DNA of 64,000 nt from Obrimoposthia wandeli (taxonomy: Eukaryota): NCBI GenBank assembly GCA_977020255.1, contig CDROCS010001147.1:868001-932000 (forward strand), in the 5' to 3' direction. The notes beneath the pieces were generated by a model that saw only the letters and a program-made list of their open reading frames with translations, was not told the origin of the DNA and made no database searches. Of this stretch, positions 17,230 to 54,449 are shown piece by piece; positions within the stretch are counted from its first letter, which is position 1; each line of letters opens with the position of its first letter. Both the position numbers and the translations under genes were made by a program.

Positions 17230-17657
17230 CTGCAATTGAGATGAAAATATCCACAATAGAAACACCAATTCGAGAATGATAATACAGTTCCAGCAACAAC
17301 CGATAAATTTTATGAACATATTTAGAAATTAAAAGTAAAAGTAATATTGAAATAAAAATAAAACAGTCGGTAATAAAACAAACATTCACACAAAAGATTA
17401 AATCTCCTCATTTAACTAACCCATGTTTGAACAAAGAAATGTATTCTCCGGTGAATTCATAGTGAGTCAATTAGTTTGGATATGCTGGAATGAAATTTGA
17501 ATCACAACAACTGTTGTTAACTCAAGGTCACATATCCTTGTTTTATTATTGTGAACTATACATGCATATATATTGCTCAATGTTTATGAAAACAAGAAGA
17601 TGGGACTTGGAGTTCAAAACATTTAGTGAGATTCAAATTTTATTCCAGTTGACACAA

Positions 17658-20600
17658 TTGACACAACATGAACTACACCTCAGACAGTCCACATACCACC
17701 AATCACCCAGCACCAGCATCCACCAACAAGGCTTATTCAAATTAATTGACACAACATGAACTGCACCTCAGACAGTCCACACACCACCAATCATCCAGCA
17801 CCAGCATCCACCAACAAGGCATATTCAAATTAATTGACACAACATGAACTCCACCTCAGACAGTCCACACACCACCAATCACCCAGCACCAGCATCCACC
17901 AACAAGGCTTATTCAAATTAATTGACACAACATGAACTACACCTCAGACAGTTCACACACCACCAATCACCCAGCACCAGCATCCACCAACAAGGCTTAT
18001 TCAAATTAATTGACACAACATGAACTCCACCTCAGACAGTCCACACACCACCAATCACCCAGCACCAGCATCCACCAACAAGGCTTATTCAAATTAATTG
18101 ACACAACATGAACTCCACCTCAGACAGTCCACACACCACCAATCACCCAGCACCAGCATCCACCAACAAGGCTTATTCAAATTAATTGACACAACATGAA
18201 CTGCACCTCAGACAGTCCACACACCACCAATCACCCAGCACCAGCATCCACCAACAAGGCTTATTCAAATTAATTGACACAACATGAACTCCACCTCAGA
18301 CAGTCCACACACCACCAATCACCCAGCACCAGCATCCACCAACAAGGCTTATTCAAATTAATTGACACAACATGAACTGCACCTCAGACAGTCCACACAC
18401 CACCAATCACCCAGCACCAGCATCCACCAACAAGGCATATTCAAATTAATTGACACAACATGAACTGAACCGCACCTCAGACAGTTCACACACCACCAAT
18501 CACCCAGCACCAGCATCCACCAACAAGGCTTATTCAAATTAATTGACACAACATGAACTGCACCTCAGACAGTCCACACACCACCAATCACCCAGCACCA
18601 GCATCCACCAACAAGGCTTATTCAAATTAATTGACACAACATGAACTCCACCTCAGACAGTCCACACACCACCAATCACCCAGCACCAGCATCCACCAAC
18701 AAGGCTTATTCAAATTAATTGACACAACATGAACTCCACCTCAGACAGTCCACACACCACCAATCACCCAGCACCAGCATCCACCAACAAGGCTTATTCA
18801 AATTAATTGACACAACATGAACTGCACCTCAGACAGTCCACACACCACCAATCACCCAGCACCAGCATCCACCAACAAGGCTTATTCAAATTAATTGACA
18901 CAACATGAACTCCACCTCAGACAGTCCACACACCACCAATCACCCAGCACCAGCATCCACCAACAAGGCTTATTCAAATTAATTGACACAACATGAACTG
19001 CACCTCAGACAGTCCACACACCACCAATCACCCAGCACCAGCATCCACCAACAAGGCTTATTCAAATTAATTGACACAACATGAACTCCACCTCAGACAG
19101 TCCACACACCACCAATCACCCAGCACCAGCATCCACCAACAAGGCTTATTCAAATTAATTGACACAACATGAACTCCACCTCAGACAGTCCACACACCAC
19201 CAATCACCCAGCACCAGCATCCACCAACAAGGCTTATCCAAATTAATTGACACAACATGAACTCCACCTCAGACAGTCCACACACCACCAATCACCCAGC
19301 ACCAGCATCCACCAACAAGGCTTATTCAAATTAATTGACACAACATGAACTCCACCTCAGACAGTCCACACACCACCAATCACCCAGCACCAGCATCCAC
19401 CAACAAGGCATATCCAAATTAATTGACACAACATGAACTGCACCTCAGACAGTCCACACACCACCAATCACCCAGCACCAGGCATACACAAGGCAAATTA
19501 ATTGACCAATGAAGTCACCCAGCACCAGCATCCACCAACAAGGCTTATTCAAATTAATTGACACAACATGAACTGCACCTCAGACAGTCCACACACCACC
19601 AATCACCCAGCACCAGCATCCACCAACAAGGCTTATTCAAATTAATTGACACAACATGAACTGCACCTCAGACAGTCCACACACCACCAATCACCCAGCA
19701 CCAGCATCCACCAACAAGGCTTATTCAAATTAATTGACACAACATGAACTCCACCTCAGACAGTCCACACACCACCAATCACCCAGCACCAGCATCCACC
19801 AACAAGGCTTATTCAAATTAATTGACACAACATGAACTGCACCTCAGACAGTCCACACACCACCAATCACCCAGCACCAGCATCCACCAACAAGGCTTAT
19901 TCAAATTAATTGACACAACATGAACTGCACCTCAGACAGTCCACACACCACCAATCACCCAGCACCAGCATCCACCAACAAGGCTTATTCAAATTAATTG
20001 ACACAACATGAACTGCACCTCAGACAGTCCACACACCACCAATCACCCAGCACCAGCATCCACCAACAAGGCTTATTCAAATTAATTGACACAACGTAAA
20101 CCTCGCTGCACACAGTCTCCACACCACCAATCACCCAGCACCAGCATCCACCAACAAGGCTTATTCAAATTAATTGACACAACATGAACTACACCTCAGA
20201 CAGTCCACACACCACCAATCACCCAGCACCAGCATCCACCAACAAGGCTTATTCAAATTAATTGACACAACATGAACTGCACCTCAGACAGTCCACACAC
20301 CACCAATCACCCAGCACCAGCATCCACCAACAAGGCTTATTCAAATTAATTGACACAACATGAAGTCCACCTCAGACAGTCCACACACCACCAATCACCC
20401 AGCACCAGCATCCACCAACAAGGCTTATTCAAATTAATTGACACAACATGAACTCCACCTCAGACAGTCCACACACCACCAATCACCCAGCACCAGCATC
20501 CACCAACAAGGCTTATTCAAATTAATTGACACAACATGAACTCCACCTCAGACAGTCCACACACCACCAATCACCCAGCACCAGCATCCACCAACAAGGC

Positions 20601-21951
20601 TTATTCAAATTAATTGACACAACATGAACTCCACCTCAGACAGTCCACACACCACCAATCACCCAGCACCAGCATCCACCAACAAGGCTTATTCAAATTA
20701 ATTGACACAACATGAACTCCACCTCAGACAGTCCACACACCACCAATCACCCAGCACCAGCATCCACCAACAAGGCTTATTCAAATTAATTGACACAACA
20801 TGAACTCCACCTCAGACAGTCCACACACCACCAATCACCCAGCACCAGCATCCACCAACAAGGCTTATTCAAATTAATTGACACAACATGAACTCCACCT
20901 CAGACAGTCCACACACCACCAATCACCCAGCACCAGCATCCACCAACAAGGCTTATTCAAATTAATTGACACAACATGAACTCCACCTCAGACAGTCCAC
21001 ACACCACCAATCACCCAGCACCAGCATCCACCAACAAGGCTTATTCAAATTAATTGACACAACATGAACTCCACCTCAGACAGTCCACACACCACCAATC
21101 ACCCAGCACCAGCATCCACCAACAAGGCTTATTCAAATTAATTGACACAACATGAACTCCACCTCAGACAGTCCACACACCACCAATCACCCAGCACCAG
21201 CATCCACCAACAAGGCTTATTCAAATTAATTGACACAACATGAACTCCACCTCAGACAGTCCACACACCACCAATCACCCAGCACCAGCATCCACCAACA
21301 AGGCATATTCAAATTAATTGACACAACATGAACTCCACCTCAGACAGTCCACACACCACCAATCACCCAGCACCAGCATCCACCAACAAGGCATATTCAA
21401 ATTAATTGACACAACATGAACTCCACCTCAGACAGTCCACACACCACCAATCACCCAGCACCAGCATCCACCAACAAGGCTTATTCAAATTAATTGACAC
21501 AACATGAACTCCACCTCAGACAGTCCACACACCACCAATCACCCAGCACCAGCATCCACCAACAAGGCATATTCAAATTAATTGACACAACATGAACTCC
21601 ACCTCAGACAGTCCACACACCACCAATCACCCAGCACCAGCATCCACCAACAAGGCTTATTCAAATTAATTGACACAACATGAACTCCACCTCAGACAGT
21701 CCACACACCACCAATCACCCAGCACCAGCATCCACCAACAAGGCATATCCAAATTAATTGACACAACATGAACTGCACCTCAGACAGTCCACACACCACC
21801 AATCACCCAGCACCAGCATCCACCAACAAGGCTTATTCAAATTAATTGACACAACATGAACTCCACCTCAGACAGTCCACACACCACCAATCACCCAGCA
21901 CCAGCATCCACCAACTAGGCATATCCAAATTAATTGACACAATATGAACTC
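17658..21951. repeat. Intronic satellite array, 88-bp unit, ~49 copies
   Basis: Unit ttgacacaacatgaactccacctcagacagtccacacaccaccaatcacccagcaccagcatccaccaacaaggcttattcaaattaa; period checked at 20461/20549. Confidence 0.98.
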
Positions 21952-23075
21952 AACGGAGAATTTCTTTCTTTGTTTTTGTTAAAGGAAGTTATACATGCAC
22001 ACGTTGCACAATTTGGAATACGCTGAACTTGAGGCTTGGATAATCGTAGTTACAATTTATTCTCTTCAAAATGATTTGAAAATGCAAATAGAATTGTTTT
22101 AATCTATTTCCTTTTATGTTACAAACAATCTTTCTCTCATTCTTCTCTTTGAAAAATATCGTTGACTAAATTCTAACAGTATTGACTCGCCTTTGCTTTT
22201 TTTCTATCTCTGGGTCGTTGTGGTATCCTCTTGAATAGTGTGAGATCTTCTTGTTAAATGTCACCCCTTGCTTAAGTTATAGCCCGTTTGTGAAATTCGA
22301 TCCTTGACTAGATTCCTTTCTTCTACTTTGCGCATGTTGTCTCCAGTCTTCAAATTTTGGGGTCTACATCAGCGAAGTTTCTGTTTCCCTCATATGATAT
22401 CGCTTACATTATATATTATGCAATTAATTAAGAAACGTAATTTATTTCCATAGTAATTTCTCCTTTGAGGGAATTGTGAAGTTGTTATCTATCTTAACTG
22501 AATTATGGCATCAAAAAAGATTTTTAAAAACACTTCAACCTGTTTTATGCCCTCGCCTGCTGCTCTTTTCATCGAGGGAGCTTCATTGTTTATCTGCTCG
22601 CGGTTAACACCAAATGTGGAAACATCGATTGACCATATTTACATTTATCCCAATGACTAAAATGCTCTCTAGCTCGATAAAACGATTTACCCTGTTCCAT
22701 GAACGCCATTATATTCTTTTGAATGCCTAAGAAAACGTATTCATATTCATAAATTATGGAAAGGGGAAATATTTGAAGTGATGTAATTCCAATGATTCTT
22801 TAAAAAAAAGCTTTTATCAACTAAAAAATGCAACAACCGAAAATAGACAAAGCGTTAAAAGTATGACTAAAACTATTTTAGCAAAAGTTATACTACATCT
22901 GGACAGTCCAGCTATGAGGAATAGCCATGCTAAAAAGAAATGTCTGTTTCAAAAACTGTGATAGATAGAAAACGGAGATTTGGAGATTTTGTACAAATTT
23001 AGCTTTCCAGATAAAAATGTTGAACACGGAAATCATATGAATTCCCGGATCCCTGTAGCATTGAAAGGGACTTAC

Positions 23076-34831: not shown

Positions 34832-34974
34832 TCTAAAATAAGGAAACTGATTAAAAACAATGTTTATAAAAAAAATACATATAAGATACAAATAAGATAC
34901 AAATAAAACTGATTATTAATTGCCAAATGAAAGAAACACAGTAAAACCGATTACAATTTATTACACGCAAAAAG

Positions 34975-35457
34975 TTAAAACATAGAAATATGAGCACGTT
35001 CAATTTTCCACATAGGCAACTTTGTTCCCATTTCATCTTTCTTGTAACCATAAAGTCGAATTGTTAGAGTCCATTGCTTCTTTTTCGGAAACGCATGAAT
35101 ATCAACATATCTTCCATAGTCATCTAGAAATGCTTCATCGGGTCCTCGGATATAAAATTCGTTCTTATTGAAAGTAAAATTTGGAACTGCCTTTTCAACT
35201 TTCTGTTTAAGATTTTGAAAATCTGGTTTTTGAATATTTGATAGATAGTAGCTGAACTTTCTTCTTTCAATTGTCACAGAATTTACTAAAGCAATCAGTT
35301 GAGCCTTCTTCAAGAATCTGACTTTGTATTTGAAATATTGTTTCACTTCTTCATACATATCCTTATCCGATTCTTCAAATATTTCTATATCTTCGTCATC
35401 GCTTAATACCCGTTGGCTATCGTCCATCGTTGATAATTGTCTTTGATATGAATGCAT
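34975..35457 (-). CDS. Element A hypothetical protein (160 aa), candidate OB-fold ssDNA-binding protein, paralog 2
   Basis: Intact ORF with acidic N-terminus; WTLTIRLYGY...GTKLPMWKIERA aligns with paralog 1; conserved in the second copy at the window end. Confidence 0.7.
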   Translation of the reverse strand: MHSYQRQLSTMDDSQRVLSDDEDIEIFEESDKDMYEEVKQYFKYKVRFLKKAQLIALVNSVTIERRKFSYYLSNIQKPDFQNLKQKVEKAVPNFTFNKNEFYIRGPDEAFLDDYGRYVDIHAFPKKKQWTLTIRLYGYKKDEMGTKLPMWKIERAHISMF

Positions 35458-35587
35458 TTACTGTGATTTGTCCTCCAATGGCGCATTCTTGTATACTAAT
35501 TTCTAACAAAGACATGAATCTCATTGGTTAATATAACTAAAGCATTGAATTTGATTGGACTAAATCTATATTAAAAATCAAAATTGA

Positions 35588-36195
35588 TTGGAAGAAATAT
35601 ATCATCCAATTATAATAGGTTTGCAAGAAACGTGCAATAAAAAAGCAGGTTCAGACATATATAAAGAAGATTTTACAGAATACAATTTCAGTCTAATGAA
35701 ACTCGTAAATATAAATTATAAAGGTAGAACAGAAGATGATGTTTCGTACTTACCATTCAATGAATGGAAGCCGAGACAATATGTAGAAATGTTTGACAAT
35801 TTCACAGTTGTTATTTTTCCTACAGGTTAGTTTTTTAGTTTATTTTCATATTGAATTCTTTAGGAAATTGTCGTGTTATGGGATGCAAAATACCAATGCT
35901 TGGGTTCAATTTACCATTTGGAATTCAAATCACTGCAATACAATCAATCACGATTTCGGCTAATCTCGGGAAACAGATAAATCTTTTTAAAACTGCAGAG
36001 AAAATGAAAGAAGAATGCATGTTTGAACTAGAAATTTTTCCTGCTCTCAGTTATTTGAAGTTTAAACCGCTATGTGTAAATATATTTTCCAGTGGTAAAG
36101 TTATGATATTGGGATTGAAAAACTTTGATTATCCAGACATAGTTGATTTGATTTTAGAAAATATTTCTTATTACATCTTGTTATCTTTTCTATAA
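35588..36195 (+). CDS. Element A TBP-like (TATA-binding protein fold) gene, spliced: join(35588-35825, 35864-36195)
   Basis: Removing the 38-nt GT-AG intron 35826-35863 joins VIFPTG-NCRVMGCK (TBP repeat 1 IFSSGKMVCTGAK-like); repeat 2 FELEIFPALSY...VNIFSSGKVMILGLK matches YEPELFPGLIY...LIFVSGKVVLTGAK. Start codon uncertain. Confidence 0.85.
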
Positions 36196-36223
36196 ACAAA
36201 CCTGTTTAAACTTATTTTTTTGA

Positions 36224-36496: not shown

Positions 36497-36533
36497 TAAT
36501 ATAAACAATATTAAAAATGAAAGAGTATATGCA

Positions 36534-37181
36534 ATGGAGCTAAATAATAATGCTGTATTTCAAATAGTTGGCCCAAGTGGAAGTGGAAAGACACATTTCG
36601 TCTGTAAATTGTTGCAAAATGAATCTATTTTCAAATCTAGTTTCAAAAATATTTATTTGCATCATGGTGGAGGAGGGGAAAGCGGGTTAACCAAAACAGA
36701 AGTTTGCAAGTTGAAGGGTATAAAATTTATTGAAGGATTTGATGCAAATTGGTGTGAAAGATTGAAAAAAGAAGATGTAATAATAATTGATGATTTGTAT
36801 GAGGAGGCTAACAAGGAATCGGTCTTTAATAATTTATTTACAAAGATTGCAAGACATCGTGAAGTAACAGTTATATTTATCACTCAAAATCTTTTTCACC
36901 AAGGAGGTCACCATAGAACAAGAAATCTTAATGTACATTACTTAGTTTTATTTAAAAATCCTAGAGATCAAACAGTTGTTGATTTTGTGACCAGACAGGC
37001 ATTTCCTCAAAATAAGAACTTTCTAGTTGATTCATTCCACGATGCTGCTAAACAAGCACATGGGTATATATTTATTGACTTTACACAAGCTTGCCCAGAT
37101 GATTTACGTGTTTTAACAGACATATTTAATTCTAAGGGAATAACTGTTTATAAACAAATAGAGAACAATTATAAAAAATAA
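36534..37181 (+). CDS. A32/FtsK-like genome-packaging ATPase
   Basis: Walker A GPSGSGKT, Walker B VIIIDDL, KIARH, IFITQNLF, NVHYLVLFKNPRD; intact 215 aa. Confidence 0.92.
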   Translation: MELNNNAVFQIVGPSGSGKTHFVCKLLQNESIFKSSFKNIYLHHGGGGESGLTKTEVCKLKGIKFIEGFDANWCERLKKEDVIIIDDLYEEANKESVFNNLFTKIARHREVTVIFITQNLFHQGGHHRTRNLNVHYLVLFKNPRDQTVVDFVTRQAFPQNKNFLVDSFHDAAKQAHGYIFIDFTQACPDDLRVLTDIFNSKGITVYKQIENNYKK

Positions 37182-37358
37182 ATTCGCAATGCCTTTTACA
37201 AAGTTGATAGTAAAACGTAAAGTGAAATCTAAGAAATCAAAAAAAGAATCATTAAGAAAAAAGAAGTGAAAAAATTAATCAAATCTGTAGTTAAAAATAA
37301 AAAAAACTTAAATGGCTTCGAATATAAACAATATTTAAATTAAACCTTTTTTATTAAA

Positions 37359-37687
37359 ATGAAGAAAATACAAAGAAGCATACCCTATTTTAAAGCTTTA
37401 GTCAAAGCCTCTTCTAATAAGAGAATGATTATTCTTAAAGCATTTCCATCCTTTGTTGTAGATGATTTATTGGAAGTTTTGTATAATATAGTTTTGGTCG
37501 AGTAAAAGTTGGAAATCGGAAAAATATATTAAAGAAATATAAAAAAACTCTTCTAGATATTGCTAATGTAAAAAGTAAAAAAAGGAAACGAAATATTATT
37601 CTTAAACAGAATGGTGGTTTCATAGGGGCTGTTATTCTAGTTGTTGCTTCAATTATCAGTAGTATTATAGATGCGACACGTTCATAA
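37359..37687 (+). pseudogene. Maverick small basic core-like protein (QxGGF type), one frameshift
   Basis: MKKIQRSIPYFKAL...LEVLYNIV(fs)GRVKV...KKRKRNIILKQNGGFIGAVILVVASII. Confidence 0.7.
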
Positions 37688-37773
37688 ACAATTATTTCTA
37701 AAATCAGCTAAAGATATGGGTGCTAACTCTTCTTTACCTAAACTTAAATTTTCTTTCTATTCAAATTGTTGTA

Positions 37774-38802
37774 ATGGAGAAGATATGGTTCAATCCAAAA
37801 GATCCAATTGGCTACACAGGAGTTTCAAAATTAGCAAAAAGAACAAAACAAAATTACAAGAAAACGCAGAAATGGCTGAGCAACCAGTTAACCTACAGTC
37901 TGAACAAGCCGATGAGAAGAAGGTTTCCAACTAGAGTTTACAAAACCAGCGGTCCTAATAATTTATGGCAAATGGATTTGTTGGAGATGATCCCATATTC
38001 TTCCATTAATAAGGGATATCGATATATTTTAACATGTATTGATGTATTTAGCAGGTTTGCTCGTGCAATTCCAGTTAAAGCAAAGTCTTCAATAGCTATG
38101 CTTGAAGCCATTAAAGAAATATTAAAAGAGGACATTCCACAAAATGTGCAAACTGATTTAGGAAAAGAATTTTATAATAAGCAAGTTCAATCATTATTTA
38201 AACAAAATAATATAAATCATTACTCTGTGTTTTCACAATACAAAGCAGCAGTAGTAGAAAGATTTAATCGTACTCTAAGAGATCGAATAAAAAAGTATTT
38301 CACAAAAGAAGGAAATAAAAAATGGATCCAAGTTTTACCTAAAATAATACATGCATATAATCACTATGAACATAGAGGTCTCAAGGGAATGAGACCTGTT
38401 GATGTTACTAATAAAAACTCTATGGACATTTGGATGAACAGGAATAAAAAAGAAAAAATTAAAAAAGCTAAATATAAGAAAAACGAATATGTTCGAATTT
38501 CGAAAATTAGCTCTACTCCATTTATTAAATACTTTGATCAGAATTGGAGCGATGAAATATTTTGTATAAGTAAAATTGATCAAAAGAGTAATCCAATAAT
38601 GTATACTATTAAAGATGCTGACAATAATATCGTTCACGGTAAATTTTACGAGCAAGAACTACAAGTAATATCAAATAAACCTAGCGTTTTCCGTATTCAA
38701 AAAATATTAAAATCTAAGGGTACAGGTAAACATAAACAATACTTTGTTAAATGGCATGGTTATTCAGACCCAACTTGGATATCAGCATCTAATATAATAT
38801 GA
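37774..38802 (+). CDS. Retroviral-like (rve) integrase with C-terminal chromodomain
   Basis: WQMDL, YILTCIDVFSR, QTDLGKEF, VERFNRTL (D-D-E intact); QYFVKWHGY chromodomain; ORF open; likely start MEKIWFNP. Confidence 0.95.
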   Translation: MEKIWFNPKDPIGYTGVSKLAKRTKQNYKKTQKWLSNQLTYSLNKPMRRRFPTRVYKTSGPNNLWQMDLLEMIPYSSINKGYRYILTCIDVFSRFARAIPVKAKSSIAMLEAIKEILKEDIPQNVQTDLGKEFYNKQVQSLFKQNNINHYSVFSQYKAAVVERFNRTLRDRIKKYFTKEGNKKWIQVLPKIIHAYNHYEHRGLKGMRPVDVTNKNSMDIWMNRNKKEKIKKAKYKKNEYVRISKISSTPFIKYFDQNWSDEIFCISKIDQKSNPIMYTIKDADNNIVHGKFYEQELQVISNKPSVFRIQKILKSKGTGKHKQYFVKWHGYSDPTWISASNII

Positions 38803-39830
38803 AGTCTATGTATATGGTTTTACCAAGTAACGGATGTCCGAAGATTCAACCAGATAATTACGCTAGTAGCTTTATTGTCGATTGGGAAAATCCTATAAAT
38901 CTCCAAGGAGAATGGGAAGCGGCTTTAACCGAATTTTCTTTTTATTATTCTCAAATTACTATCAGATAAAACTCACATATTTCGTTTACAAAAGAAGTTG
39001 ATCATGAAAAAACAACTGAAGTTGTAATCGGGTTTGATAGTAAAAGAAAATTCTTTTACAATTGTATAGATAAAGAAGTGAAAGTAATATATGAAAAAAA
39101 CAAAGTCAGATTTAAAAATCGATCAAAACATTTTCAACCTATTCAAATTATATTCGAATCTGGAAAAGAAGCTCTTCAATTCGGTTTTGATAGTAGACAT
39201 GTAGTAGGTATGAAGAGATCTGATATTGTCTCATCTAAAATGTTTAAAAATGTTCCTAGTAGAGTAGTAAGAGTGTTGTTAGTTGAAACGAGACCAAAGA
39301 CTGTAGTGGAACTGAAAATGTTTTCAAAAAATTATAAAATAGATAGTGAAGTGAATTTCTGTAAATTAATACACAAGGAATGTAGTGAATATTTGGATAA
39401 AAGTGAAACATTAAAAAATGGTAAAATAACGTTTACAGTAATGAGCAATATAAAACGAGTTTAATTTGATGATAAACTCGCTAAAAACCTTGGTATAAAC
39501 AGAAATACCTTTGAAACCCATACAATAAAAACCATAAAAGCTAAAAATAAGGCAAAACTTTTAAATGATGTTAATCATTTATATATTTATACTAATTTAA
39601 TAAAACCAACGCTTGTTGGAGGACAACGAGTTCCACTTTTGAGAACAATATGGATATCTAAAAATGAAACTAAAGATGGTGACGCTGTCGGTATGTGTAT
39701 AGATCAACCAATGTATCTTCCAGTTGCTCTCTTTTCTATAAACAATATTGAAGTAAATATTAGAGATAATTCCGGACAACTAATAGATTTCACGTACGGG
39801 GCCAAGACAAGTTAAACAATACATTTAGGA
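38799..39830 (+). pseudogene. Minor capsid (penton-like) protein with three in-frame stops
   Basis: YMVLPSNGCPKIQPDNYASSF...PINLQGEWEAALTEF and LYIYTNLIKPTLVGGQRVPLLR...NNIEVNIRD; ATG overlaps the integrase stop (ATGA). Confidence 0.85.
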
Positions 39831-39837
39831 AAACAAA

Positions 39838-40190
39838 ATGGCGAATCCAGCCAACAAGGTGGATAATTACCATATTTTGTTGGTAAACAATACGGATCTG
39901 GCTGGCTTAGAACATTAGGTAGATTTGCCTTTCCTCTTTTAAAGAGACTCGGGCGATTTATATCAAAATTAGGAAAGGATTACCTTTCATCTAATGACAA
40001 TAAACTAATACCAACTTTTAAGAAGCATGCGCTTGATGAACTTGATAATGTTTTACTTGAAGTTGCTAATTTGATTAGAAAACGTAAATCAAATAAAAGC
40101 CAAGGAGGTAGTGGATTTAAAAGTAAAAAGAAGCTAAAAATTAATATAAACAAACGTAAGAATGTTGAAGGAACAATATTTGCAAAATGA
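39838..40190 (+). pseudogene. Maverick conserved small protein with amphipathic helix after a GxG motif, frameshifted
   Basis: KQYGSGWLRTLGRFAFPLLKRLGRF...SQGGSGFKSKKK; stop overlaps the major capsid ATG. Confidence 0.7.
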
Positions 40191-41416
40191 GTTGCGCCAA
40201 AACTGAATTATGTATTTTTGATAAACCGCTTCCACAAGTAGTTGTAGATAATGCTTCCTTTGAAGAAATATTCCTAGTTAACTCAGTTTCAGGAACCACT
40301 TTAATCGATTTAGAATTTAATATTAATGGTTCCAATAGCGAGTATTTAGATTTGAATGATACTTTGCTTTATGTTCAAATAAAAGTATTAAATCGGGATG
40401 GTACTAATTTAGATGAAAATGCCGATGTAACACCTGTAAATTATCTCTTTAATTCTTTATTTAATGATGCCATTATTACTCTTAATAATGTCAAAATTGA
40501 AGGTGGAAATTCTTCTTATGCTCATAAAGCTTTGATTGAAAGTCTTTTGAATTATAGTACTGATACTCAAAATACTAATTTGGCAACCATTGATTATGAT
40601 AAAACTGTTGCAACTCGCTAAGAATGGATTGCAGGTTCTAAAGCTTACGAAATGTGTGGGTCTTTGAGATTGAATTTCTTTGAAAAACCGAAATATTTAA
40701 TTCCCGGTGTTAATGTACATCTTCGTTTGAAACGTAATAAATGGAATTTTTCTTTGATAAGCACGGACATTCTAAAACCTAGACTTGATATTTTGGATGC
40801 AAAATTGTATGTTCAAAGAGTTAAAACCGAGCAATCAGTTTTAATGGCACATAATATAGGAATGGAAAAAAACAATGCTTGTTATCCTATTAGAGAAACT
40901 AAACTTATATCTTATTCTTTAGGTACGGGTACACAAGCTTTTAATAAGGATCAAACTTTTGGTGATGTAAGATTACCGAAATTCATTTTAATTTCTTTTC
41001 AAAAAACTGCAAAGTTTCTATGAAATTATACGACAGATGCAACTAAATTTGACAATCTTAATGTTGGTTCAGTGACACTTTCAAGAAATACTGATTATCG
41101 TGAAACATATAAAACATATTTCGAAGGTAACGCTTATGCTTTGGCTTATACCCAATCTATTATTCGGAATTTGGGTCAACTAGATAAAAATATAAACAAT
41201 GGTACTTCTTTCACTGACTTTAAAAACAGCTGCCCGTTCTTCACATTTGTTTTGGCACCAGACTTTGATATAAACCAATGCCAACTACCAAAGGATGGAA
41301 ATTTACGACTAGAAATTAAGTTCAATGCAGCTTTAACAAATCCTACTACGGTGCTTATTTACGGAGTATTTGATTCGGAAATACAAATCAATAAAAACAG
41401 AACTGTCATATTATAG
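40187..41416 (+). pseudogene. Major capsid protein (double jelly-roll), one in-frame stop and a frameshift
   Basis: KTELCIFD, LEFNING...YLDLNDT, KYLIPGVNVHLRLKR, LPKFILI, FDINQ...GNLRLEIKF...VLIYGVFDSEIQI; position between small core genes and protease is typical of Mavericks. Confidence 0.88.
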
Positions 41417-41417
41417 A

Positions 41418-41798
41418 ATGGAGTAAGACATATTTTAAATTTATATTTATTAATTTTTATTTAGTTCAAAACAAGTAAAAGAATCAGCAGAGAAGGTCCT
41501 GGGTTATAAATTCAATGGAGTTTATCCTATTGATATGATTCCATTTTTTCAATCAGGAGGTTACATTATCAATACTCATACTTCGAATTTACCAGGAGAA
41601 CATTGGATAGCTATTTATGTTAGAGAGTGGACAATACATGTATTTGATCCACTTGCAATGTCTTATCCCCACAAACTTGTTTCAACTATTCAAAAAGGAC
41701 GAAGAAGAGTATTTTACAACAAGATACAATATCAGGATCCTGCAACGAGAAACTGTGGACATTTATGTATTTTATGGTTATCGTTGCAAAACAATTAG
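41418..41798 (+). CDS. Adenain-like cysteine protease, spliced: join(41418-41422, 41465-41798)
   Basis: ATG GA|GTaaga...tttttatttAG|T (42-nt intron) gives MDSKQVKESAEKVLGYKFNGVYPIDMIP...; catalytic motifs GEHW, VFDP, YQ, NCGHLC. Confidence 0.88.
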
Positions 41799-42071: not shown

Positions 42072-45000
42072 TTAAATTCTGAAGTGTCCATAAGCCAGGC
42101 TAGCGTTTTTTTCTACCCAAAAGCGCTTGTCGTCATTACTACTCAAAGCGATTTTGGTTGATTTATGGGAATACAGTTGATGGGCTCTTGAAATAAATCT
42201 AGTTTGCTCAACGCTTTCAATACACCCAGTATCATAAACTTTCCGGTAGGCCTCATGTGTAAGATTGTTTCTTCCCACACCCTTTGCTCTCATTGAACAT
42301 GTATTATTAGATGCATGTAAACTGTAGCATTTAGGGCGTAGGAAAATACAATCATCATACGAAACCTGTCCCTCGCTTTCATCCTTAAATTTCCCGATAA
42401 TGTCCTTTAAACTCATAGAGTGTAGAGAATGGTTAGCGGGATATTTATGGGTATCTAGTAAGTTGTCCCTAAACATTGCTGGTAATAATTGATTATTTAA
42501 ACTAACATTCCTACATTCTAAAAAGAAAGAGTCAGTGTCCCCTGCCGCGATTTTAATCTCACAATTAAATTCTTGTCGGTATTTCTCCAATTCTATGTAT
42601 TGAAGCTCATACATTCTGAGTTTAGAAATGTCTAAAACCGTTTGACCTATATAACTCGGTCGATCGAGACAAATACTCTGTTTTCCAAATAACACTGCTA
42701 CCAAGTCATCTGCAATTGTAAAACTACGCTTGAAGTTGTACTTACTAGTATATGTTATTAGTTTACGCTCATCATTGCAAAACCGTAGAAAAATAAGTTT
42801 CCGCAAGTCCTCTACAGTTTTTCCAAAGAGACTATTACTTTTTAACTTGTAAAAATCTCGATCGAATTTGCTAGTGGCCAAATTACGTTTTCTTGAATTC
42901 TTCTCAATATAGTCTTTAAACACAAAGTTTTGACTGAAGCTTATAGCACGATGAATTCGAGTAACTTTCGCTCCCAACTTTAAGTAGAATTGAAGAAGCC
43001 GCCAATGCACAACATAATTCAACTTGTCTTTATGGGTTAACAATAATTTCTTAACCTTTGAATTAGGTGGGCATTGATGAACAGGCGCTACTGGAAGATC
43101 ATCTAATTTATCATGCACATTGGGAGGGATTTTTATGTCCACCTCAACCAAATAGCCGACGTCGGATGAAACTGTATCAACAGTAGCCAAATCTGTCATC
43201 AACTTATTCAACTGATCCACATCATAAACCCACTTAAAGTTGGCATGAGGTAGAGGTTGAGTAAGCGCCCACCCATACAAATTATTAATATCGATGTACA
43301 GAATCTCCGTGGATTGATTTTTGACAACATGATGTTTGTTGACAAAAGTCATTCCACCGCGTATACCATTATCATACATTTGATACATCGCGGGATCTTG
43401 CAGTAACTCGATATTAATTTTAAGAGTTTTTATTGCTGTTGCCCATGAAAGACCAGGTAAACTAAAGAAATGCATGGGATCTAGCCCATCTTCTGCTAAA
43501 GACTTTACACGAAAGGACTCAAAAACATCAGCTAAAAGATAAATGTCTAACTTCATATAATAAAGCATATATTCTAAAAGATTTCGACAATTATTCACCC
43601 AAAATGTACGGGCCTCATTATAGTCTTAAAGACTTACACTTTCAAATTCAGTTATGGGTGGGATTTCAGTTGTATTTTTTAAATCTGCGAAAGTTTTCGC
43701 AAATTTATACGGAAAAATCCCCTTATCGTTAACCGAAGCTGGGAACACTGACTGTGTAATTGGCCATGCATTTAATGATGCCGTTAAATTTTTTAAAGAC
43801 CCGCTCAAAAACTGCAGAGAATCTATGAATCTTAAACTGCAGAATTCAGTATATGCAGTTAAAGATAAATATTTCTCTGAAGTTTGAGGTATACATGAAA
43901 TTTCCCAAGAGCTTAAAGTACCCAACGCGTATTTAAGTATATGATGCAAATCATATCCTTTGAGGTTATGAAACACGATGGGAATGCGTGGTTTTTTAGG
44001 GAGACGACGGCCAAGGTTACAAAGGTTGCACGCCGCTCCCAAGTATCGCCCCGTAATATGATCGTGATCTCTGACTAACTTAGACTGGATTCCACACAAA
44101 TAACATAATCTACAAGAATTAAAATTAACCCAGTCTAGGCCTGTCATGATCATTGCTTGCTGAGCATTGAGATCATACCACGGTTTGACAATTGTTGTTC
44201 CTAATTCCTCTAATTTTAACATAAAATCTAAAATACAATTTGGACCGGAAAATTTATGATACTGGGTAATATTGGGGCCTAAGAATAGTAGTCCTGCCGA
44301 AGCCGGTAGGTGAATACTCTCATACTGGTCGTGCAATACTAAAATTGACTCAAAATCTGCATACATCCTGAATTCCATGGGTATGCATTTTGCCCAATCC
44401 CTGAATTTTAAATCCTTATCCTTAGGCATGCTATAAAGCGTATTGTCATCAGGATTCAGTGGACATAATGTCAGATGTTTGCTGTAAGAGAGCTCGGATC
44501 GGAATCCATGCAAACATCTATGACACCACTTATCCTAACCGGTAAGGCTTCATTATCTAAATTTAGAAGACGATCTAAACTGGGAATTGCAGCATAATGG
44601 AATTTATTATTCTGTTCGAGAAAAATTAAGTTGACCTGAGTCCCCTCATTTTTGCTCCTATAAATTACATCTACAAAAGGATTTTTAAATATTTCTTCGT
44701 CTGTTACATTAACTGGGATATCAGTATTATATTTGAATACATTAATACTCAAGTTATTAAGATGTTCAAATCTTGATATCGCAGTTAATTTAACAGGAAA
44801 ATCTATTCCATGATACTGCAATTCATTTAAAAAAGGGATATATTTACTGACACGCTCTCTATGTTCAGTAATTACATCCCTTTTGAGGATGGCCAACACG
44901 CTATACAGAAAGCAAAGGTTATCACTGTTTTGTACGTTAACAATGGAACGTGAAAGTTGAAGAGATCTAGGTGAAGGAATGTATGAACTCCCCGAAAGAT

Positions 45001-46513
45001 ATATAATGTCAGTGAACTTAGTTAGAACAAAGCTAACATCGTGAATTCTAACTAGAGTCCATCCACTACTTAACTCGCTATAATTAGCAATTTTTTCATC
45101 CAGTTTCTTCCAATTTCAGTTACAAAATTATCATAAAAAACAGTTGCTTTATGTGAAATTACCCAAGTTTTAGTTTCCTCATTGACATTTTTAAACTGCA
45201 CTGTTGCGCAAAATTGAACCTTAGCCTGTCCTAATTTAGTCAATTCTGATTTTAAAAGATTTTCAATATTTGAATCTACACCTACGTTTAATAAAATTTC
45301 ATTTCCTAATGGCACCTTAACTATAACATATTTATTATTTAGGTGATACTCTATAGTAGCACCGTTTTCTCTACGTTTTTTTGGTGGGACCTTATTAAGA
45401 AATTGGCCTCGCCTCTTTCTTCCGTTTGTCGCTGACAAACCTCCCCCTTATTGAACGGGAAGACAACTATTTATATTAATAGTTGAGACAATCGCAGTTG
45501 AGGTTGAAGGTGCTGCTATTGAACATGCTGCCGATGTTGAGGCAATTGCAGCTGAAATGGAAGCTGCTGCTATTGTTGATGCTGCCGATGTTGAGGCAAC
45601 CGTAGCTGATGTTGAAGGGGCTACTGTATCAGGTGCTGCCGATGTTAATGAGACAGTGGCAGTTGTAGAGGCTGCATTTGAAGCTGACCTTGCCGATGAA
45701 GAAGCGGCTGTTGTAGAGGTAAGTGCTGCTGAAATAAATATATTAAAAAAATAAATATATTTTTAAAAATTATTACTTCTAAGGCGTGCTAACATCGATG
45801 TAGGCACTCGCGATGGTGGAGGCATTTCTGTTGTAGCAGATGACGATTGTAGAACGCTATTTCCTGAATAAAAAACAAAAAATAAAATATATATATTAAA
45901 AACTAAAATATATAATTAAAAAAAAAAACAACTAATGATGACAATCCAAGTTGAGCTGGAATGAAGTCCTCTTCATTGATGGAATCCATCCAGCTGTCGT
46001 CCGTTGACTCGACGAAATCGGATTCCTCGATGGTCTCCAACCATGAGTTATCGCTCCACTGCTCTATCTAGAAATCTGACTGGGATATGTCATTCATCCA
46101 CTCATTGTTAGACATTTGAGTGGATGGGTCAGAATCAGGAGCCGGGAGACCAATCTCAGGACCGTAAAAGGGTTGATCGACTGCAACTGGAATTGGAGCT
46201 GGAGCGGCCTGCGAATCGCTCACCAATTGCATGATATCTCTCTTCTTATTGTTGGCCGTGAAACACGATAGATGAGCTCGATGTTCACTGAAGAAGTCTC
46301 GAAACTCCTTCTCCTCCATTGTTCTGCAGAAGGGGCAGACAAAGAAGTGAAGCCCGCGAGACTTTGTCCGGTAGTATGCAGACATTGTCTCCATGCAGGT
46401 CTCTCCTCCATGTGGAGCCGAAGCACCACAATACGCAGGAAATAGGTTACAAGTAATCTGAAATAATAAATATTAATAAGGAAATAATAAAAATAAATTC
46501 TTACCATAGACAT
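42072..46513 (-). pseudogene. polB: Protein-primed family B DNA polymerase of element A with zinc-finger/low-complexity N-terminus and endonuclease VII-like insert; spliced and decayed
   Basis: YADFES, FHNLKGYD, LDIYLLADVF, IRGG, YIDINNLYG, KLKSNSLFGK, GDTDS, RPKCY; RDHDHITGRYLGAACNLCN insert; 5' introns 46458-46504, ~45864-45932 and 45729-45776; in-frame stops and frameshifts. Confidence 0.93.
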
Positions 46514-47185: not shown

Positions 47186-47338
47186 AATTATCTAAATTTG
47201 TAGCAAATCCCGTTGTTTATAACGAAAAACTGTTAATCAAAAATTTATTAAAATAACGAGGTAGTATTTAGACAATTTCATATTTAGACAATTTTATAAC
47301 ATAATGAATAAAGACAAAGTAATCAATAAAATTAATTT

Positions 47339-49171: not shown

Positions 49172-49577
49172 GTGTGTGTGTCTATGTTCAGGCTTAACTT
49201 ATATAAATTATTTTAACTAAATTCAATTAAATTATCTACTTATAAAAAAAGTATTATATAATTTGATAAATATGTTTAAAAGTTCGTGTATCTCTCTAAC
49301 AAAGACAGTCACGTACTGCATCTATATTGCAAATACTTACATCTTTATGTAATCAATAGTAATAAGTCACGTACTACATTTATTCTTATACATGTATGTA
49401 TGTGTGTGAGTGTCTAACAAAGACAGTCACCAATACCTACAAGACAGTCACGTACTGTATATATATAGCAAATACTTGCAACTTTATGTAATTACAAATT
49501 CTTTGGAGGTTTTGGTAAAAAGTTTAGTTTTCTACCAAGATAGGATCCATTTAAACTGCACTTACAACTTTATGTAA
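49172..49577 (+). repeat. Left TIR of element B
   Basis: Near-identical to the reverse complement of 59777-60181; several internal aagacagtcac and actttatgtaat motifs. Confidence 0.93.
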
Positions 49578-49845
49578 TTTTACAAAAATATCAAGCATAC
49601 CATCCCCTTTTTGTATACCTCTTATATAATCCACATTCTTTTTCTTTTTATAGCATTTTTATCAACTCTACCAAACCATCTATCTAACAGATTTCCTACC
49701 ATCATATGAATAGCCAAACACTCCATGATTTTATTTTTCGACTTTGATGATTTAGTAGGTTTTTTAGTCATTTTCATTATAAATATTATTAAAGTATCAC
49801 TATTGTTTATATATATATAAAAATAAATACAAAAGACACAAAATC

Positions 49846-50127
49846 TTATTTGTCAACTCTAACAGCTTCAATTATTTTCCATATCGGAGTTTCCAATCCA
49901 CTAATTGCACCGATATTGCATCCTTGAATTATGATTGAGAGAATCCATTCTAATTTAAGAGGAGGTCCATCGAATATTGTTCTATTCTCCTGCTTGAAAG
50001 TGGCAGTTGATTCTTTGATTATGAATTTGTTTTCCTGAAGCGCATAGTTGATTCCGAATTGAATCGAGAGAATATTGATTCTCTCTTTATCCACCAAAGT
50101 CAAATTTGATATCAATTTCAAAATCAA
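49846..50127 (-). CDS. Element B hypothetical protein
   Basis: 93-codon ORF just inside the left TIR; no recognisable motif. Confidence 0.35.
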   Translation of the reverse strand: MILKLISNLTLVDKERINILSIQFGINYALQENKFIIKESTATFKQENRTIFDGPPLKLEWILSIIIQGCNIGAISGLETPIWKIIEAVRVDK

Positions 50128-50771
50128 ATTTAAGCGGCTCGATGTTTTCAGGAAAAATAAAATTATAGTTATGAGCTTTTTTCAAAAAGTGCATCTTATA
50201 TCCATAATATGTATGCATAGGTTGATATAGCTTTTCAAAATTCATATTTACAATTATAAGTTGAAATATTCAATTGTTTATCCTCTAAAGCTCAATTCTA
50301 ATTAGTAGATATTCTTGTTTATGAAAATCGTTTAGTATTAGTCATATCTTTAAAGGGCTTACGTTCTTCGGTTACGCGCGTAGTACTTGTTATTGTTTGA
50401 CCCGATAGATTAATATTTTCTCTCTGATTATTTATATTATAATTCATATTCGAATATCAATTACTACCAGAACCTATATATGTACTAGCTCTACTTTGAT
50501 TATTTTGATTATTTTGATTATTCATTTTCAATAAAATCATTATCAAAATATTGTTTATATTGCTTTATTCTTAAGACAAAGACATCACATGACATTTCTT
50601 CTAAATACTAAGAATGTTACTAAAATATATATTAGTTATTATATATGCTAAACAATTAATACATTCAATGTTGTTATGACTACTAAATTTTTTGTACATT
50701 ATGTTTCGGAAAATGGAGAACTCACCATTAGACGACGACGTTTTGACTAGATTTCAAGAAGAAAGGAAGAT

Positions 50772-51677
50772 ATGATATATGAGCGACATAGATTTGATAG
50801 ATTACAAGCAAAGTTTACTGGTTTAGCGGATAAGAGAGATTTAGCAAAAGCAGGATTTTATAAGCACGATGATTCAAAAGATAATCTAAAGTGTGTTTAC
50901 TGTTTTGGAGGAATATCGGAATGGGAGTTCTATCTGAAACCAATGAAGCAGCATATGCTATATTTCCCAACATGTCCGTTTGTTTTGAAAATGAATGTAT
51001 CAAATATACCAATAATTGATTCCAGCATCAAGCAAATTGATTTTGATTCAACTCCAATGGATAAAGTAGTTATTGTACGCAATAATTATTCTAATGATAT
51101 TGAAATACCTACATTATCGATTTTCCCTCATGTATATATTTGGAATGATTCTTATCGATATTGTTTCTGTCAGAAAGCAGTACCCCGACTTGAGTTTATT
51201 GATACTATGCCTGAAAGAATCTTTCATACTCGAGATTGTAAAGCATCTATTATGGAAATCAAGAATAGATGTATTGTTGAATATCATATTAGTAATTATG
51301 AAATTGATGCTCATATGGAAACTCGTCAAATAGTTTTGCTGAAACGTGATTATAGCCATGATAGAATCAAAGCCGTTTTAATTAATAGGTTTAAAACATT
51401 CGGTAATAATTATGATTCTATATATGAGTTTAAACCAGATTTAAGATCTTTAGAAATAAAATCTGAAACAAAACATCGTATTAATTATCTCGAGTACCTC
51501 TTACCAAATCCCGAATGTATTGTTTGCATGACTGATATTATTTCCGTGGTATTTTTACCATACGGACACTTAAACACATGTATTAAATGTTCAGATCGTT
51601 TTATTTCATGTCCATATTCCAAGACAATTATCATTAGACGAGTAAAAAATATTAGATTTCATAGTATAGGCAATTAA
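50772..51677 (+). CDS. iap: Inhibitor of apoptosis (one BIR plus C-terminal RING)
   Basis: BIR LAKAGFY...CVYC...W...H...FPTCPFV; RING CIVC...FLPYGH..TCIKC...CPYS with two expected cysteines substituted. Confidence 0.88.
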   Translation: MIYERHRFDRLQAKFTGLADKRDLAKAGFYKHDDSKDNLKCVYCFGGISEWEFYLKPMKQHMLYFPTCPFVLKMNVSNIPIIDSSIKQIDFDSTPMDKVVIVRNNYSNDIEIPTLSIFPHVYIWNDSYRYCFCQKAVPRLEFIDTMPERIFHTRDCKASIMEIKNRCIVEYHISNYEIDAHMETRQIVLLKRDYSHDRIKAVLINRFKTFGNNYDSIYEFKPDLRSLEIKSETKHRINYLEYLLPNPECIVCMTDIISVVFLPYGHLNTCIKCSDRFISCPYSKTIIIRRVKNIRFHSIGN

Positions 51678-51749
51678 ACAAAGATACGTAATCTAAAAAT
51701 ATATGTTCAAATAGTATAAATAGAAGAAATCAGTTTATAATAATCAGAA

Positions 51750-52184
51750 ATGCTACTTCACAATATAAAATTAGTGAATATTAATTACAAGGGAATGGTT
51801 GTAAGTAACATTCAACACTTGCCATTTCTGACTTCGAAAGCCTCATCAGTATCGACTCAAGTGTGAAGGTTATACTATTATCATTTTCAAATCTGGTAAT
51901 TTATTTTTACATTTAAATATAATTATAATTTAAGCACATGCAGAATAAGGGGTTGTAAAACAGTGCTGGATGAAAGCACTCTTCATTTTGATATAAAAAT
52001 CGAAAGAATCCAATCAATCAGTCTCAGTAGCAATCTAGAAACATCAATAAACCTGAGCAAGATGAGCAAGAATATGGGTTCGGAAGCTGTTTACGAACCA
52101 GAAATCTTCCCGTGACTTCGATACGTCAAGTACAATCCACTATGCGTGAACATTTTTGCGAGCGGGAAGATTATTATTACTTAG
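51750..52184 (+). pseudogene. Element B TBP-like gene with intron 51896-51934, decayed
   Basis: KLVNINYKG identical to A; IIIFKSG|GT..39 nt..AG|TCRIRGCK; YEPEIFP*LRY...VNIFASGKIII; stop and frameshifts. Confidence 0.85.
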
Positions 52185-52373
52185 TGTTAAATCTTTAAAT
52201 TATGAATATCTGATTGAATGTATTTTGTTTAATATACATATTCACACTTGTGTTATATTATGTGGCAACAACAACAACAGTTATGAGAAGAGAAGAAACT
52301 ATTGATGAAGTGATTATAGAATTAGTAATTATAGATCCGATTATTGAAGAAGATATGAGATTTTTTTAATGCT

Positions 52374-52918
52374 TTGGCTTTTATGGAACCCATAATAGCT
52401 CATGCTTCCAGTATGGAGATGAACCACATGACCCATCTTTTTGATAGTTTGTTTAGTGCTAGATTTACTCAATTTAATGTAGAAAAGTTAAACAAAACAA
52501 AAATGAGTGAGATTTTAGTAAATCAATTATATATTGGTTATTATCGAGATGGGTTTGATGAAACTACACTTTTGAACTCCGATTTCACTCATGTAATCAA
52601 TACATCTATACTGGATAAGATATCTTATAAGAAATTAAAATATACTTATGTCTTTGTAAACTCAAAAGAGGAGAAACAATAATGAGATATTATAAACAGA
52701 CTAATAATATAATTAAAGAAACTATCGAAATTGATGGTAAGATTTTAGTATGTGGTCATTATGGTAGTTTACATGCTGCTTGCATTGTTATTGGATTTTT
52801 ATCTCATTCGATGGGTGTTACTGCTGCTTCCAATCTTGTTAAAACTAAACGGACTATTGCTGTTCCTAATGAAGCTATGCTTCATCAAATACGCATTTTT
52901 ATTCGTTATCATGTATAA
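52374..52918 (+). pseudogene. Dual-specificity phosphatase-like gene lacking the catalytic HCxxGxxR motif, split at a TAATG overlap
   Basis: QLYIG, FTHVIN, KILVCGHYGSLHAACIVIGFL (aligns with VLVHCxxGxSRSATIVIAYL), KRTIAVPNEAMLHQI (KRxxxxPNxGFxxQL). Confidence 0.75.
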
Positions 52919-53280
52919 ATTTTATTCGTCTTTATCTTTATTAATCAGTGTTTTTTATTAGTAAGTGTCTTTATCAGTCAGTGTCTTTATTAGTCAGTGT
53001 CTTTATTAGTTAGTGTCTTTATTAGTTAGTGTCTTTATTAACCAATTAGATTTCAGATGTATAGTATATAAGCAGATTACATTTTACTGCTTCTGGTACA
53101 GCAGCTTCCAATATTATTAAAGCTAAACGGACTATTGCTGCTCCTAATGAAGCTATGCTTCATCAAATACGTATTTTTAATCGTTATCATGTGTAAATTT
53201 TATTCGTCTTTATCTTTATTAATCATTGTCTTTATTAATCATTGTCTTTATTAGTTAGTGTCTTTATTAGTCAGTGTCTT
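52821..53280. repeat. Duplicated phosphatase 3' end plus 16-bp agtgtctttattagt(c/t) tandem repeats at a rearranged junction
   Basis: ~130 bp from ~52821 repeated at ~53098; 16-bp arrays at ~52960-53040 and ~53220-53282. Confidence 0.85.
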
Positions 53281-54414
53281 TATTTTCCGGAACATCTTCT
53301 CCGGATTTAGAATTCAATATAAATGGATCAAATACTCAATATCTTGATTTGAATGATAGTTTATTTCTCGTTAAATTGAAAGTTACTAAGGAAGGAGGAG
53401 GTAACTTGGATGATGATTTGGATATCAAATTAGCTAATTTCAATTTTCATACACTTTTCAAGGATGTGATTCTCAGTCTCAATAATGCGAAAGTTGAGGG
53501 AAATAATACTAGTTACACCCATAAAGCAATGATTGAAACATTACTGAATTACGGTAATGATACGAAATTGATTAATCTTGATGCAATTGGGTTTGATAAT
53601 GATGAAAAAAGAAGAACAGCTTCCATTGCAAAGTCTAAATTATCGTCGCTTTGTGGGAGTTTCCATTTGGATTTCTTTAAGCAACCAAAGTATATTTTAC
53701 CCGGTGTAAGTGCACATAATCGAATGAAGAGAAATCCAGTAGGTTTTAGTGTTGTTTGCGATGATACTATTAAATCAGCAATTGAGATTACGGAAGCAAA
53801 ATTGCTGGTTTGTAGAGTAAAAGTGGAACCATTTGTACTCGTTGCACATCGAATAGGGTTATAGAAGCAAAATGCATGTTATCCTATTAGGAAAAACTAA
53901 TCTTGTTTCTCATGCTATCACTACGGGAGCACTATCTTATTACAAGGAACAGATTTTTGGAGATATGCAAATTCCAAACTTTGTTTTAATTGCTTTCAAA
54001 AACACGTCTACCTATGGAGGTGAGTCTAAAAATGAGGTTTCTCAATTTGGACATATGAATGTGAGTTCAATTAAACTAGCCCAAAAAATTTATTATCAAG
54101 AAACTTATACGAATGACTTTGAAAATAATGATTATGTGTTTTCTTATGTGCAATCTTTAATTAGAAATCTTGGTCATTTGGATAAGGATGCTAATGTTGG
54201 AATTTCAATGACTGATTTCAAAGACAAGTATACACTGTTCACATTTGTTATCTCCCCTGATTTTGATATAAATCAAGCTCAAATCCCTAAACAGGGAAAT
54301 TTTAAAGTAGAAATCAAGTTTACAAAAGCACTTGAACATCCTACTAATATTATAATCTACGGAGTATTTGATTCTGAGGTTCAAATTACCAAGGAAAGAA
54401 CAGTACTAGTATAA
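53274..54414 (+). pseudogene. Element B major capsid protein, 5'-truncated, with stop and frameshift
   Basis: LEFNINGSNTQYLDLNDS, KYILPGVS, FDINQAQIPKQGNFKVEIKF, IYGVFDSEVQI; clear paralog of 40187-41416 missing the KTELCIFD-type N-terminus. Confidence 0.88.
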
Positions 54415-54449
54415 ACAAAATGAAAACAATAAAAAACAAGAAGATACAA

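Follow-up and report, generated by a model that had tools for sequence, protein, structure and literature searches.

The vTBP of beta/gamma-herpesviruses (EBV BcRF1, KSHV/MHV68 ORF24, HCMV UL87) is a viral protein with the TBP fold and a more polar DNA face, which directs the RNA polymerase II (Pol II) of its host to late promoters with a one-base variant of the TATA box, TATT (PMC4893493; PMC12529657). It forms one domain within a large protein that acts in a six-protein complex (PMC4893493; PMC12529657), and its model has been reported to be incompatible with TFIIB (PMC12529657). The TBP-like proteins of NCLDV also have the fold and have lost the N-lobe regulatory patch; they mostly come with a TFIIB of their own, and the glutamates of the stirrup are often lost (PMC7221094). 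Polintons/Mavericks (adintoviruses) carry a protein-primed PolB (pPolB), an rve integrase, an A32-like ATPase, an adenoviral-type protease, putative capsids and long inverted repeats, and the literature searched does not count a TBP or a two-class promoter system among their hallmark features. A TBP gene has already been labelled in a MELD virus/related element with an adintovirus-like PolB (Fig. 5 legend, Starrett et al. 2021, PMC8502044); this is a label only, with no structure or promoter analysis in the text portions examined. The legend was the only mention to emerge from a search of openly available article text, in which neither the present family nor its box was described; the portions of polintovirus papers searched for 'TATA' made no mention of it. 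The Polinton protein described here shares the fold and a more polar face with herpesvirus vTBP, and its candidate late box is again a one-base TATA variant, with C at position 7. It differs from vTBP as a predicted stand-alone protein that keeps the TFIIB glutamates. These glutamates also set it apart from NCLDV TBPs, and no TFIIB or RNA polymerase gene was seen in the elements that carry it.

The window, meaning the whole stretch of DNA analysed, is an AT-rich piece of 64 kb from a 1.35-Gb genome with metazoan-type TBP and TFIIB genes, by which the type of host was judged. Element A of the window is, by its pPolB, rve integrase, ATPase and protease genes, a Polinton/Maverick (Table 1). Its TBP-like gene precedes the genes for the A32-like ATPase, the rve integrase, the putative capsids and the protease, and pPolB lies on the facing strand. 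The putative capsids had no Pfam match and were named from their position, size, homology among relatives and the Maverick layout. This copy of the element is decayed, its capsid and PolB genes being broken, and no terminal inverted repeats were found for it. The neighbouring ORF c1 reached atlas scores of 0.74-0.77 against NCLDV clusters including DUF2738/Pox_I3, which is a weak lead; it adjoins the TBP gene in many elements, and its relatives seem to bear an intron. Pfam scanning of 44 window ORFs and 87 neighbour ORFs returned no herpes-type family and no member of the TFIIB family (PF00382), although a very divergent TFIIB could escape such a scan. The genome holds 12 TFIIB matches versus at least 150 TBP matches. 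A GC-rich TFIIB-like exon (L178, G000:C6808) is unlike the other genes of the host and possibly lies on a contaminant contig. The host also has several TBP paralogues (L021, L022, L023, L024, L025): two on C238 are arranged head to head, C968 holds one, and divergent genes without introns lie on C60/C1092.

Element B of the same window (49178-60181) has 409-nt inverted repeats of 91% and carries a second, decayed TBP-like gene; the element is itself decayed and gave no ATPase, integrase or minor capsid match. On its plus strand it also contains an IAP-like gene at 50751-51677 (BIR PF00653 and RING PF13920) and a piece of a dual-specificity phosphatase at 52631-52918 (PF00782, under the cut-off). 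At another locus, L045, a BIR-like ORF adjoins the TBP gene. At about 17500-22100 the window contains a long 88-bp tandem array in which the strand skew is strong.

Table 1. Features of the window that bear on the TBP-like gene, its element and the ATAAAC box
Feature	Positions	Strand	Basis
Box TATAAACA, 36 nt 5' of ORF at 34831	34861..34868	-	
Conserved ORF c1, pointing away from TBP gene; lead towards an ssDNA-binding protein	34975..35457	-	19-member cluster
CCAAT/ATTGG words near TBP-gene promoter	35523-35610		sequence
Consensus TATA box TATATAAA of TBP gene, 38 nt 5' of ATG	35658..35665	+	sequence
Initiator-like TCAGTC, 30 nt 3' of TATA box, 8 nt 5' of ATG	35688..35693	+	sequence
Exon 1 of TBP-like gene (from ATG to repeat-1 strand S4)	35696..35825	+	family profile A7 match
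Predicted intron, 38 nt, phase-1 GT-AG	35826..35863	+	sequence
Exon 2 of TBP-like gene (repeat-1 strand S5, all of repeat 2 and the stop)	35864..36195	+	PF00352
Box TATAAACA overlapping TBP stop, 32 nt 5' of ORF 36224	36191..36198	+	
Box TATAAACA, 33 nt 5' of packaging ATPase ATG (36534)	36500..36507	+	
A32-like packaging ATPase	36534..37181	+	PF04665 E 1.6e-07
Two boxes TATAAACA: 37149 within ATPase frame; 37323, 35 nt 5' of conserved small ORF c8	37149..37330	+	
Box CATAAACA 5' of integrase region	37683..37690	+	
rve integrase with chromodomain	37702..38802	+	PF00665 E 7.8e-13, PF00385
Box CATAAACA in integrase chromodomain codons, 67 nt 5' of putative minor capsid ATG	38731..38738	+	
Putative minor capsid, small ORF, putative major capsid; stops interrupt this copy	38799..41416	+	tblastn vs intact metagenome ORFs
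Two boxes TATAAACA in putative minor capsid region: 39494, 39737	39494..39744	+	
Box TATAAACA, 41 nt 5' of putative major capsid ATG (40187)	40145..40152	+	
Box TATAAACA within putative major capsid frame, 5' of protease	41191..41198	+	
Adenoviral-type cysteine protease	41454..41798	+	PF00770 weak here; E 1.1e-07 in relative L076
Protein-primed PolB, fragmented in this copy	42072..45447	-	PF03175 E 1.8e-08
Box TATAAACA, 35 nt 5' of conserved ORF c2 (ATG 47185)	47214..47221	-	
Decayed TBP-like gene in element B, with stops and frameshifts	51765..52190	+	

A sequence-only reading of this DNA had proposed that the element encodes a TBP-like protein whose first repeat is shortened, and the fold, the intronless relatives and the Polinton context all agree with it. 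That reading began the gene at 35588, which is the mere start of a stop-to-stop frame. The true start was placed at the ATG at 35696, since stop codons lie within the 50 codons upstream in 15 of 15 copies with that ATG located (20 copies fetched), intronless relatives start at the equivalent residue, and a consensus TATA and an Inr-like word, TCAGTC, lie just upstream. Two frames, 35588-35830 and 35839-36195, are interrupted by a GT...AG stretch, and its removal by splicing would yield a predicted product of 153 aa. Exon 1 matched the family profile A7 with a probability of 98.7 across 43 columns, and exon 2 matched the Pfam TBP family PF00352 (E 1.5e-10; 41.2 bits, cut-off 22.9). In the 13 copies read, out of 20 fetched, the predicted intron measures 38-40 nt, and its length is therefore not frame-bound. 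At least 8 of 27 loci have a phase-1 GT-AG intron of 37-40 nt at the same site, including subfamilies of about 50% protein identity and one metagenome locus; in this comparison some intron-bearing copies were not read by the test, and other loci are uninterrupted. An intronless subfamily is present in the same genome. The fold was computed on an intronless relative, P0002 (154 aa), and the family membership of the window gene is based on the match of its exons.

The family is large and recurs with Polinton genes. Exon 2 has at least 150 copies in the genome at 99-100% identity. Among 59 metagenome loci, 21 matched one of the window's Polinton hallmark proteins, and most of the remaining loci are 1-3 kb. 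Relatives of the same length and without intron, both in this genome and in metagenomes, adjoin the ATPase, integrase, capsid and PolB genes of Polintons. When cluster representatives were searched by profile, 63 proteins matched at E<=1e-30; longer forms, of 160-190 aa, were also found by profile search and retain helix-length segments in repeat 1; scanning IMG/VR with five query proteins gave no relatives. The sequence-only reading had called for a phylogeny that would separate host capture from a viral clade. A quick tree with 75 rows put the short forms into one group (SH-aLRT 95) and the whole family, long forms included, apart from the TBPs of the host and of other cellular organisms (SH-aLRT 100; 99-100 over the quick trees made); such quick trees have long branches, and named NCLDV TBPs are not among the rows. 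By this tree, the element TBP is not a recent capture from the present host. Between subfamilies, the dN/dS of exon 2 was 0.22-0.34 in three of six pairs, with dS saturated in the remaining three. It is hardly credible, then, that the gene is a non-functional, decayed fragment of a host TBP in which the 38-nt stretch is a frameshifting insertion. The decay of the window element elsewhere would fit that view, but P0002 has 140 relatives, the intron site is common to subfamilies about 50% identical, an intronless subfamily exists, dN/dS is well under 1 and the trees separate the family from host TBPs.

AlphaFold predicted the structure of P0002 with a pLDDT of 96 from a 97-row alignment (97 of the 120 hits listed, long or partial hits being omitted). 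The strands of both repeats are present, and repeat 1 is without helix in the model, so that the basic N-lobe helix H2 is predicted to be absent. Foldseek gave 44 PDB matches at E<=0.001, every one a TBP. In the VIA comparison (Z 14.0; 150 of 154 residues aligned; rmsd 2.8), model residues 1-154 corresponded to yeast 65-240, which fixes the residue register. The TBP fold, whose absence would have counted against the sequence-only reading, is found in this relative as a two-repeat saddle. The residue numbers used here are those of yeast TBP, anchored by this alignment and by the positions given in PMC1636458. The protein has in common with cellular TBP the saddle, N69, F116, F190, F207, E186/E188 and both glycine motifs, at 20-28% identity over the structure; in contrast to cellular TBP, it lacks both repeat-1 helices, F99 and the N-terminal extension, and its DNA face is rebuilt. 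In the 97 short forms the repeat-1 linker has a median of 20 residues versus 32 by yeast numbering. The BFVD fold matches to NCLDV TBP-like proteins have 9-18% identity. With herpesviruses, the fold search gave U58 at E 6.5e-3 and TM 0.43, and no sequence kinship was seen.

All the motifs named from the sequence were recovered. KLVNINYKG occurs in both elements, at 35699 in A and 51768 in B, and IFxxG at 35813 and 36082. Repeat 2 retains both Phe residues (yeast F190 and F207); the sole Phe retained in repeat 1 is the F116 equivalent of IFxxG, and Pro stands at the F99 site in the window and in 96 of 97 short forms, which leaves the four intercalating Phe of canonical TBP incomplete. The acidic stirrup was likewise found as FELEIF at 36022 (A) and YEPEIF at 52092 (B), but the L of FELEIF is not fixed, this site being P in 15, L in 2, S in 1 and unread in 2 of the 20 copies fetched. 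Among the 97 short forms, the DNA face carries V122R (97), T124M (97), V71N (92), N159S (93), V161T (86), I194R (97), V203C (97), L205N (97) and F99P (96), and F116 (95), F190 (96), F207 (97), E186 (94) and E188 (97) are retained, as are N69 and P191; this invariance is overstated because the members were retrieved with the same family as query. The window protein itself has both glutamate equivalents and Ser at the I194 site, which is S or I, not R, in its subfamily. In 35 longer forms of 27% mean identity (hand-picked from 133 new hits, plus L163), F99P is found in 34 and V122R, T124M, L205N and E188 in all 35, with the I194 and V203 sites variable.

I194, V203 and L205 are the specificity positions changed in TBPm3, and in TBP it is the N-terminal repeat that reads the box in its 3' half (PMC1636458). 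The stirrup glutamates are contacts for TFIIB; among NCLDV TBPs, which come with a TFIIB of their own, their conservation is about 40%, and the helix H2 patch of the N-lobe is a common site for TFIIA, Mot1, TAF1 and Brf (PMC7221094). The TBP-like protein could be a decoy that sequesters host TFIIB or other factors and damps host transcription while reading no specific sequence. The stirrup is kept, F99 is lost and hydrophobic residues of the DNA face are replaced, all of which would suit a decoy; moreover, V122R-type changes impair cellular TBP. The DNA face of a decoy would be expected to drift, yet it is the most conserved surface of the family; the surface such a protein would need for Mot1, TFIIA, TAF1 and Brf1 is deleted, and the promoter box described below would be left unexplained. 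For this reason we consider a decoy very improbable.

In unbiased word counts of 146 de-duplicated upstream regions, TATAAACA had 38 occurrences versus 1.7 expected, and the element-specific box was defined as (T)ATAAAC(A/G). ATAAAC was found within 110 nt upstream of 41 of 48 starts of the virion, packaging and integrase type (ATPase, capsid, protease, c8 and integrase) versus 7 of 68 starts of TBP, PolB, c1 and c5 (Fisher p 7e-17; the kin rows behind these counts are not independent). By class, the box precedes ATPase in 10/10, major capsid in 7/7, the small ORF in 5/5, minor capsid in 6/7, c8 in 5/7, protease in 4/6 and integrase in 4/6 starts; in the early-type classes, the figures are 4/43 for TBP, 2/15 for c1, 1/8 for c5 and 0/2 for PolB. 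Its distance peaks at 30-44 nt upstream of the ATG, and antisense ATAAAC preceded none of the 48 virion-type starts. Consensus TATA follows the opposite trend, with 26/68 early-type versus 4/48 virion-type starts, and it was present in only 19 of 43 TBP genes; TATAAAT occurs at 2/6 protease starts. The likeness to the off-consensus late TATA of herpesviruses is one of analogy.

The 5.7-kb cassette of element A contains 10 sense sites versus 2.7 in shuffles, and none of 300 shuffles reached 10. ATAAACR was absent on both strands of the PolB of this element, and the box was not in excess in the DNA that flanks it. Many boxes fall within upstream genes as the codons ATA-AAC (all 13 rows for the small ORF; 14 of 17 for the minor capsid), with ATA making up 36% of Ile and AAC 24% of Asn codons in the background; the other three rows of the minor capsid have a box at the gene end or shortly after. 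We also considered the box as a poly(A) signal. This was ruled out, as the upstream frame contains many of the sites, 70-225 nt inside it and before its stop, and boxes also precede genes without a same-strand upstream neighbour. The site TAGTATATAAGCA, which had been proposed as the target for an EMSA, holds a consensus TATAWAWR with CCAAT words nearby and is consequently an ordinary TATA rather than the element-specific box. As a separate observation, TBP-bearing Polintons at L052, L060, L075 and L092 carry leucine-rich-repeat ORFs with hydrophobic N-termini, a cluster in which the late-type box stands 33-42 nt upstream in 5/5 rows.

The rebuilt DNA face, together with an off-consensus box before capsid, packaging and integrase genes, likely points to a private switch steering host Pol II. 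Hence, we propose, with a probability of roughly 0.65, that the TBP-like protein is a late-promoter specificity factor, similar in action to herpesvirus vTBP and likely working through host TFIIB. The sequence-only reading had left the choice between a promoter-specificity factor and a decoy; the former is much better supported, by the conserved, rebuilt face and the matching box. In the proposed mechanism, the small TBP would be made early by the host machinery from its own consensus TATA/Inr promoter. It would then bind (T)ATAAAC(A/G) at a distance of about 30-45 nt upstream of the genes for capsid, packaging and integrase, sites which host TBP would use poorly, and it would prefer TATAAACA over TATAAAAG/TATATAAG. 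Host TFIIB and Pol II would be brought in by the retained acidic stirrup, and the missing H2 surface of repeat 1 may allow escape from Mot1, TFIIA, TAF1 and Brf1, so that host regulators would grip the protein poorly. The timing, early versus late, is presumed from gene function.

A comparison between Polinton groups is consistent with a pairing of face and box. A distant element, L163, has a long-form TBP with the R/M/N face and an ATPase 38% identical; it holds six sense and no antisense boxes, which precede its ATPase, c8 and integrase. The G001 Polintons have a different, full-length TBP, in which F99, N159, V161 and the glutamates are kept and T124 is mostly kept; it falls outside the clade of the window on a separate branch (SH 88). 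Four of their contigs (L220, L221, L212, L222) encode such proteins of 183-188 aa with a near-cellular DNA face, which suggests that there is more than one kind of Polinton TBP. Of 28 matching starts in this group, 2 have ATAAAC ahead of them, and TATAWA words have C at position 7 in 1/17 versus 35/55 in the box-bearing elements; some of the G001 TATA-like words are possibly codon-driven, and the contrast is that of one lineage pair, seen in partial, mis-binned contigs of one assembly and in another host. L163-L166 and G001-G003 are Polinton contigs inside bacterial MAGs and most likely mis-binned. L164/L166 had been taken as TBP-less Polintons and were rejected as such, as their group carries a different TBP; no TBP-less Polinton group nearer to L164 was found in this genome. 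The L155/L156 subfamily has no TBP gene within 20 kb and keeps its boxes, and its TBP is possibly supplied in trans by other copies. At L155:7462-9374 (G000:C333), there was no TBP match between c1 and the ATPase, and the boxes are kept.

This subfamily also fits another explanation, in which the box is read by the host, through its TBP, a TBP paralogue or a forkhead protein, and the element TBP does some other job. The forkhead consensus is RYAAAYA, which ATAAACA fits, and the host has TBP paralogues, one of them with a divergent face. In favour of the proposed dedicated factor, C at TATA position 7 is disfavoured by cellular TBP: it inactivates the yeast HIS3 element and, against the L114 equivalent, can be fitted only as a Hoogsteen pair. 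Cellular TBP can still bind (PMC4457894; PMC13566119), and TATAAACG retained 27% activity in an Arabidopsis assay (PMC10005294), so both a tolerance of position-7 C and a partial activity are on record for cellular systems. The box is, however, fixed in strand and distance, like a core promoter; it is common to metagenome elements of many samples and nearly absent in Polintons with a near-cellular TBP face, and the clade-wide changes sit in the repeat that reads its 3' half. On this balance, we regard reading by a host factor as unlikely, though it deserves to be kept in mind.

It is also conceivable that the element TBP binds the box while host TFIIB is not enough, other element partners in a small viral pre-initiation complex, or another route to Pol II, being needed. 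The herpesvirus vTBP requires five partners (PMC4893493), the conserved ORFs c1, c5, c8 and c10 have no assigned function, and the convex surface is altered by the lost helices. The retention of E186 in 94/97 and E188 in 97/97 forms speaks against this, since NCLDV TBPs, with a TFIIB of their own, retain this site in about 40% (PMC7221094), and 153 aa leave no additional Pol II-binding domain; we think such a need for partners quite improbable.

Returning to a late-promoter factor that would work through host TFIIB, we consider the chances about even for a wider claim, that a large Polinton clade runs an early-to-late cascade through one protein of 150 residues. This would be the smallest known two-repeat TBP and part of an orthogonal TBP/TATA pair that uses host TFIIB, with the host-regulator surface shed and the face co-evolved with position-7 C; it would have an origin separate from that of herpesviruses, and a second Polinton group would have a near-cellular TBP. 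If true, it would be a natural altered-specificity TBP, in which the TBPm3 positions and the face for the 3' half are changed, the TFIIB site is kept and the Mot1/TFIIA/TAF1 site is dropped, and it would be useful both for studying TBP and as an orthogonal part for transcription. One small protein and one 8-base site would then serve as an experimental handle. Polintons are without an RNA polymerase, and the ordering of their gene expression bears on whether they live as viruses; a dedicated late box with a dedicated TBP, if true, would mean a programmed virion phase.
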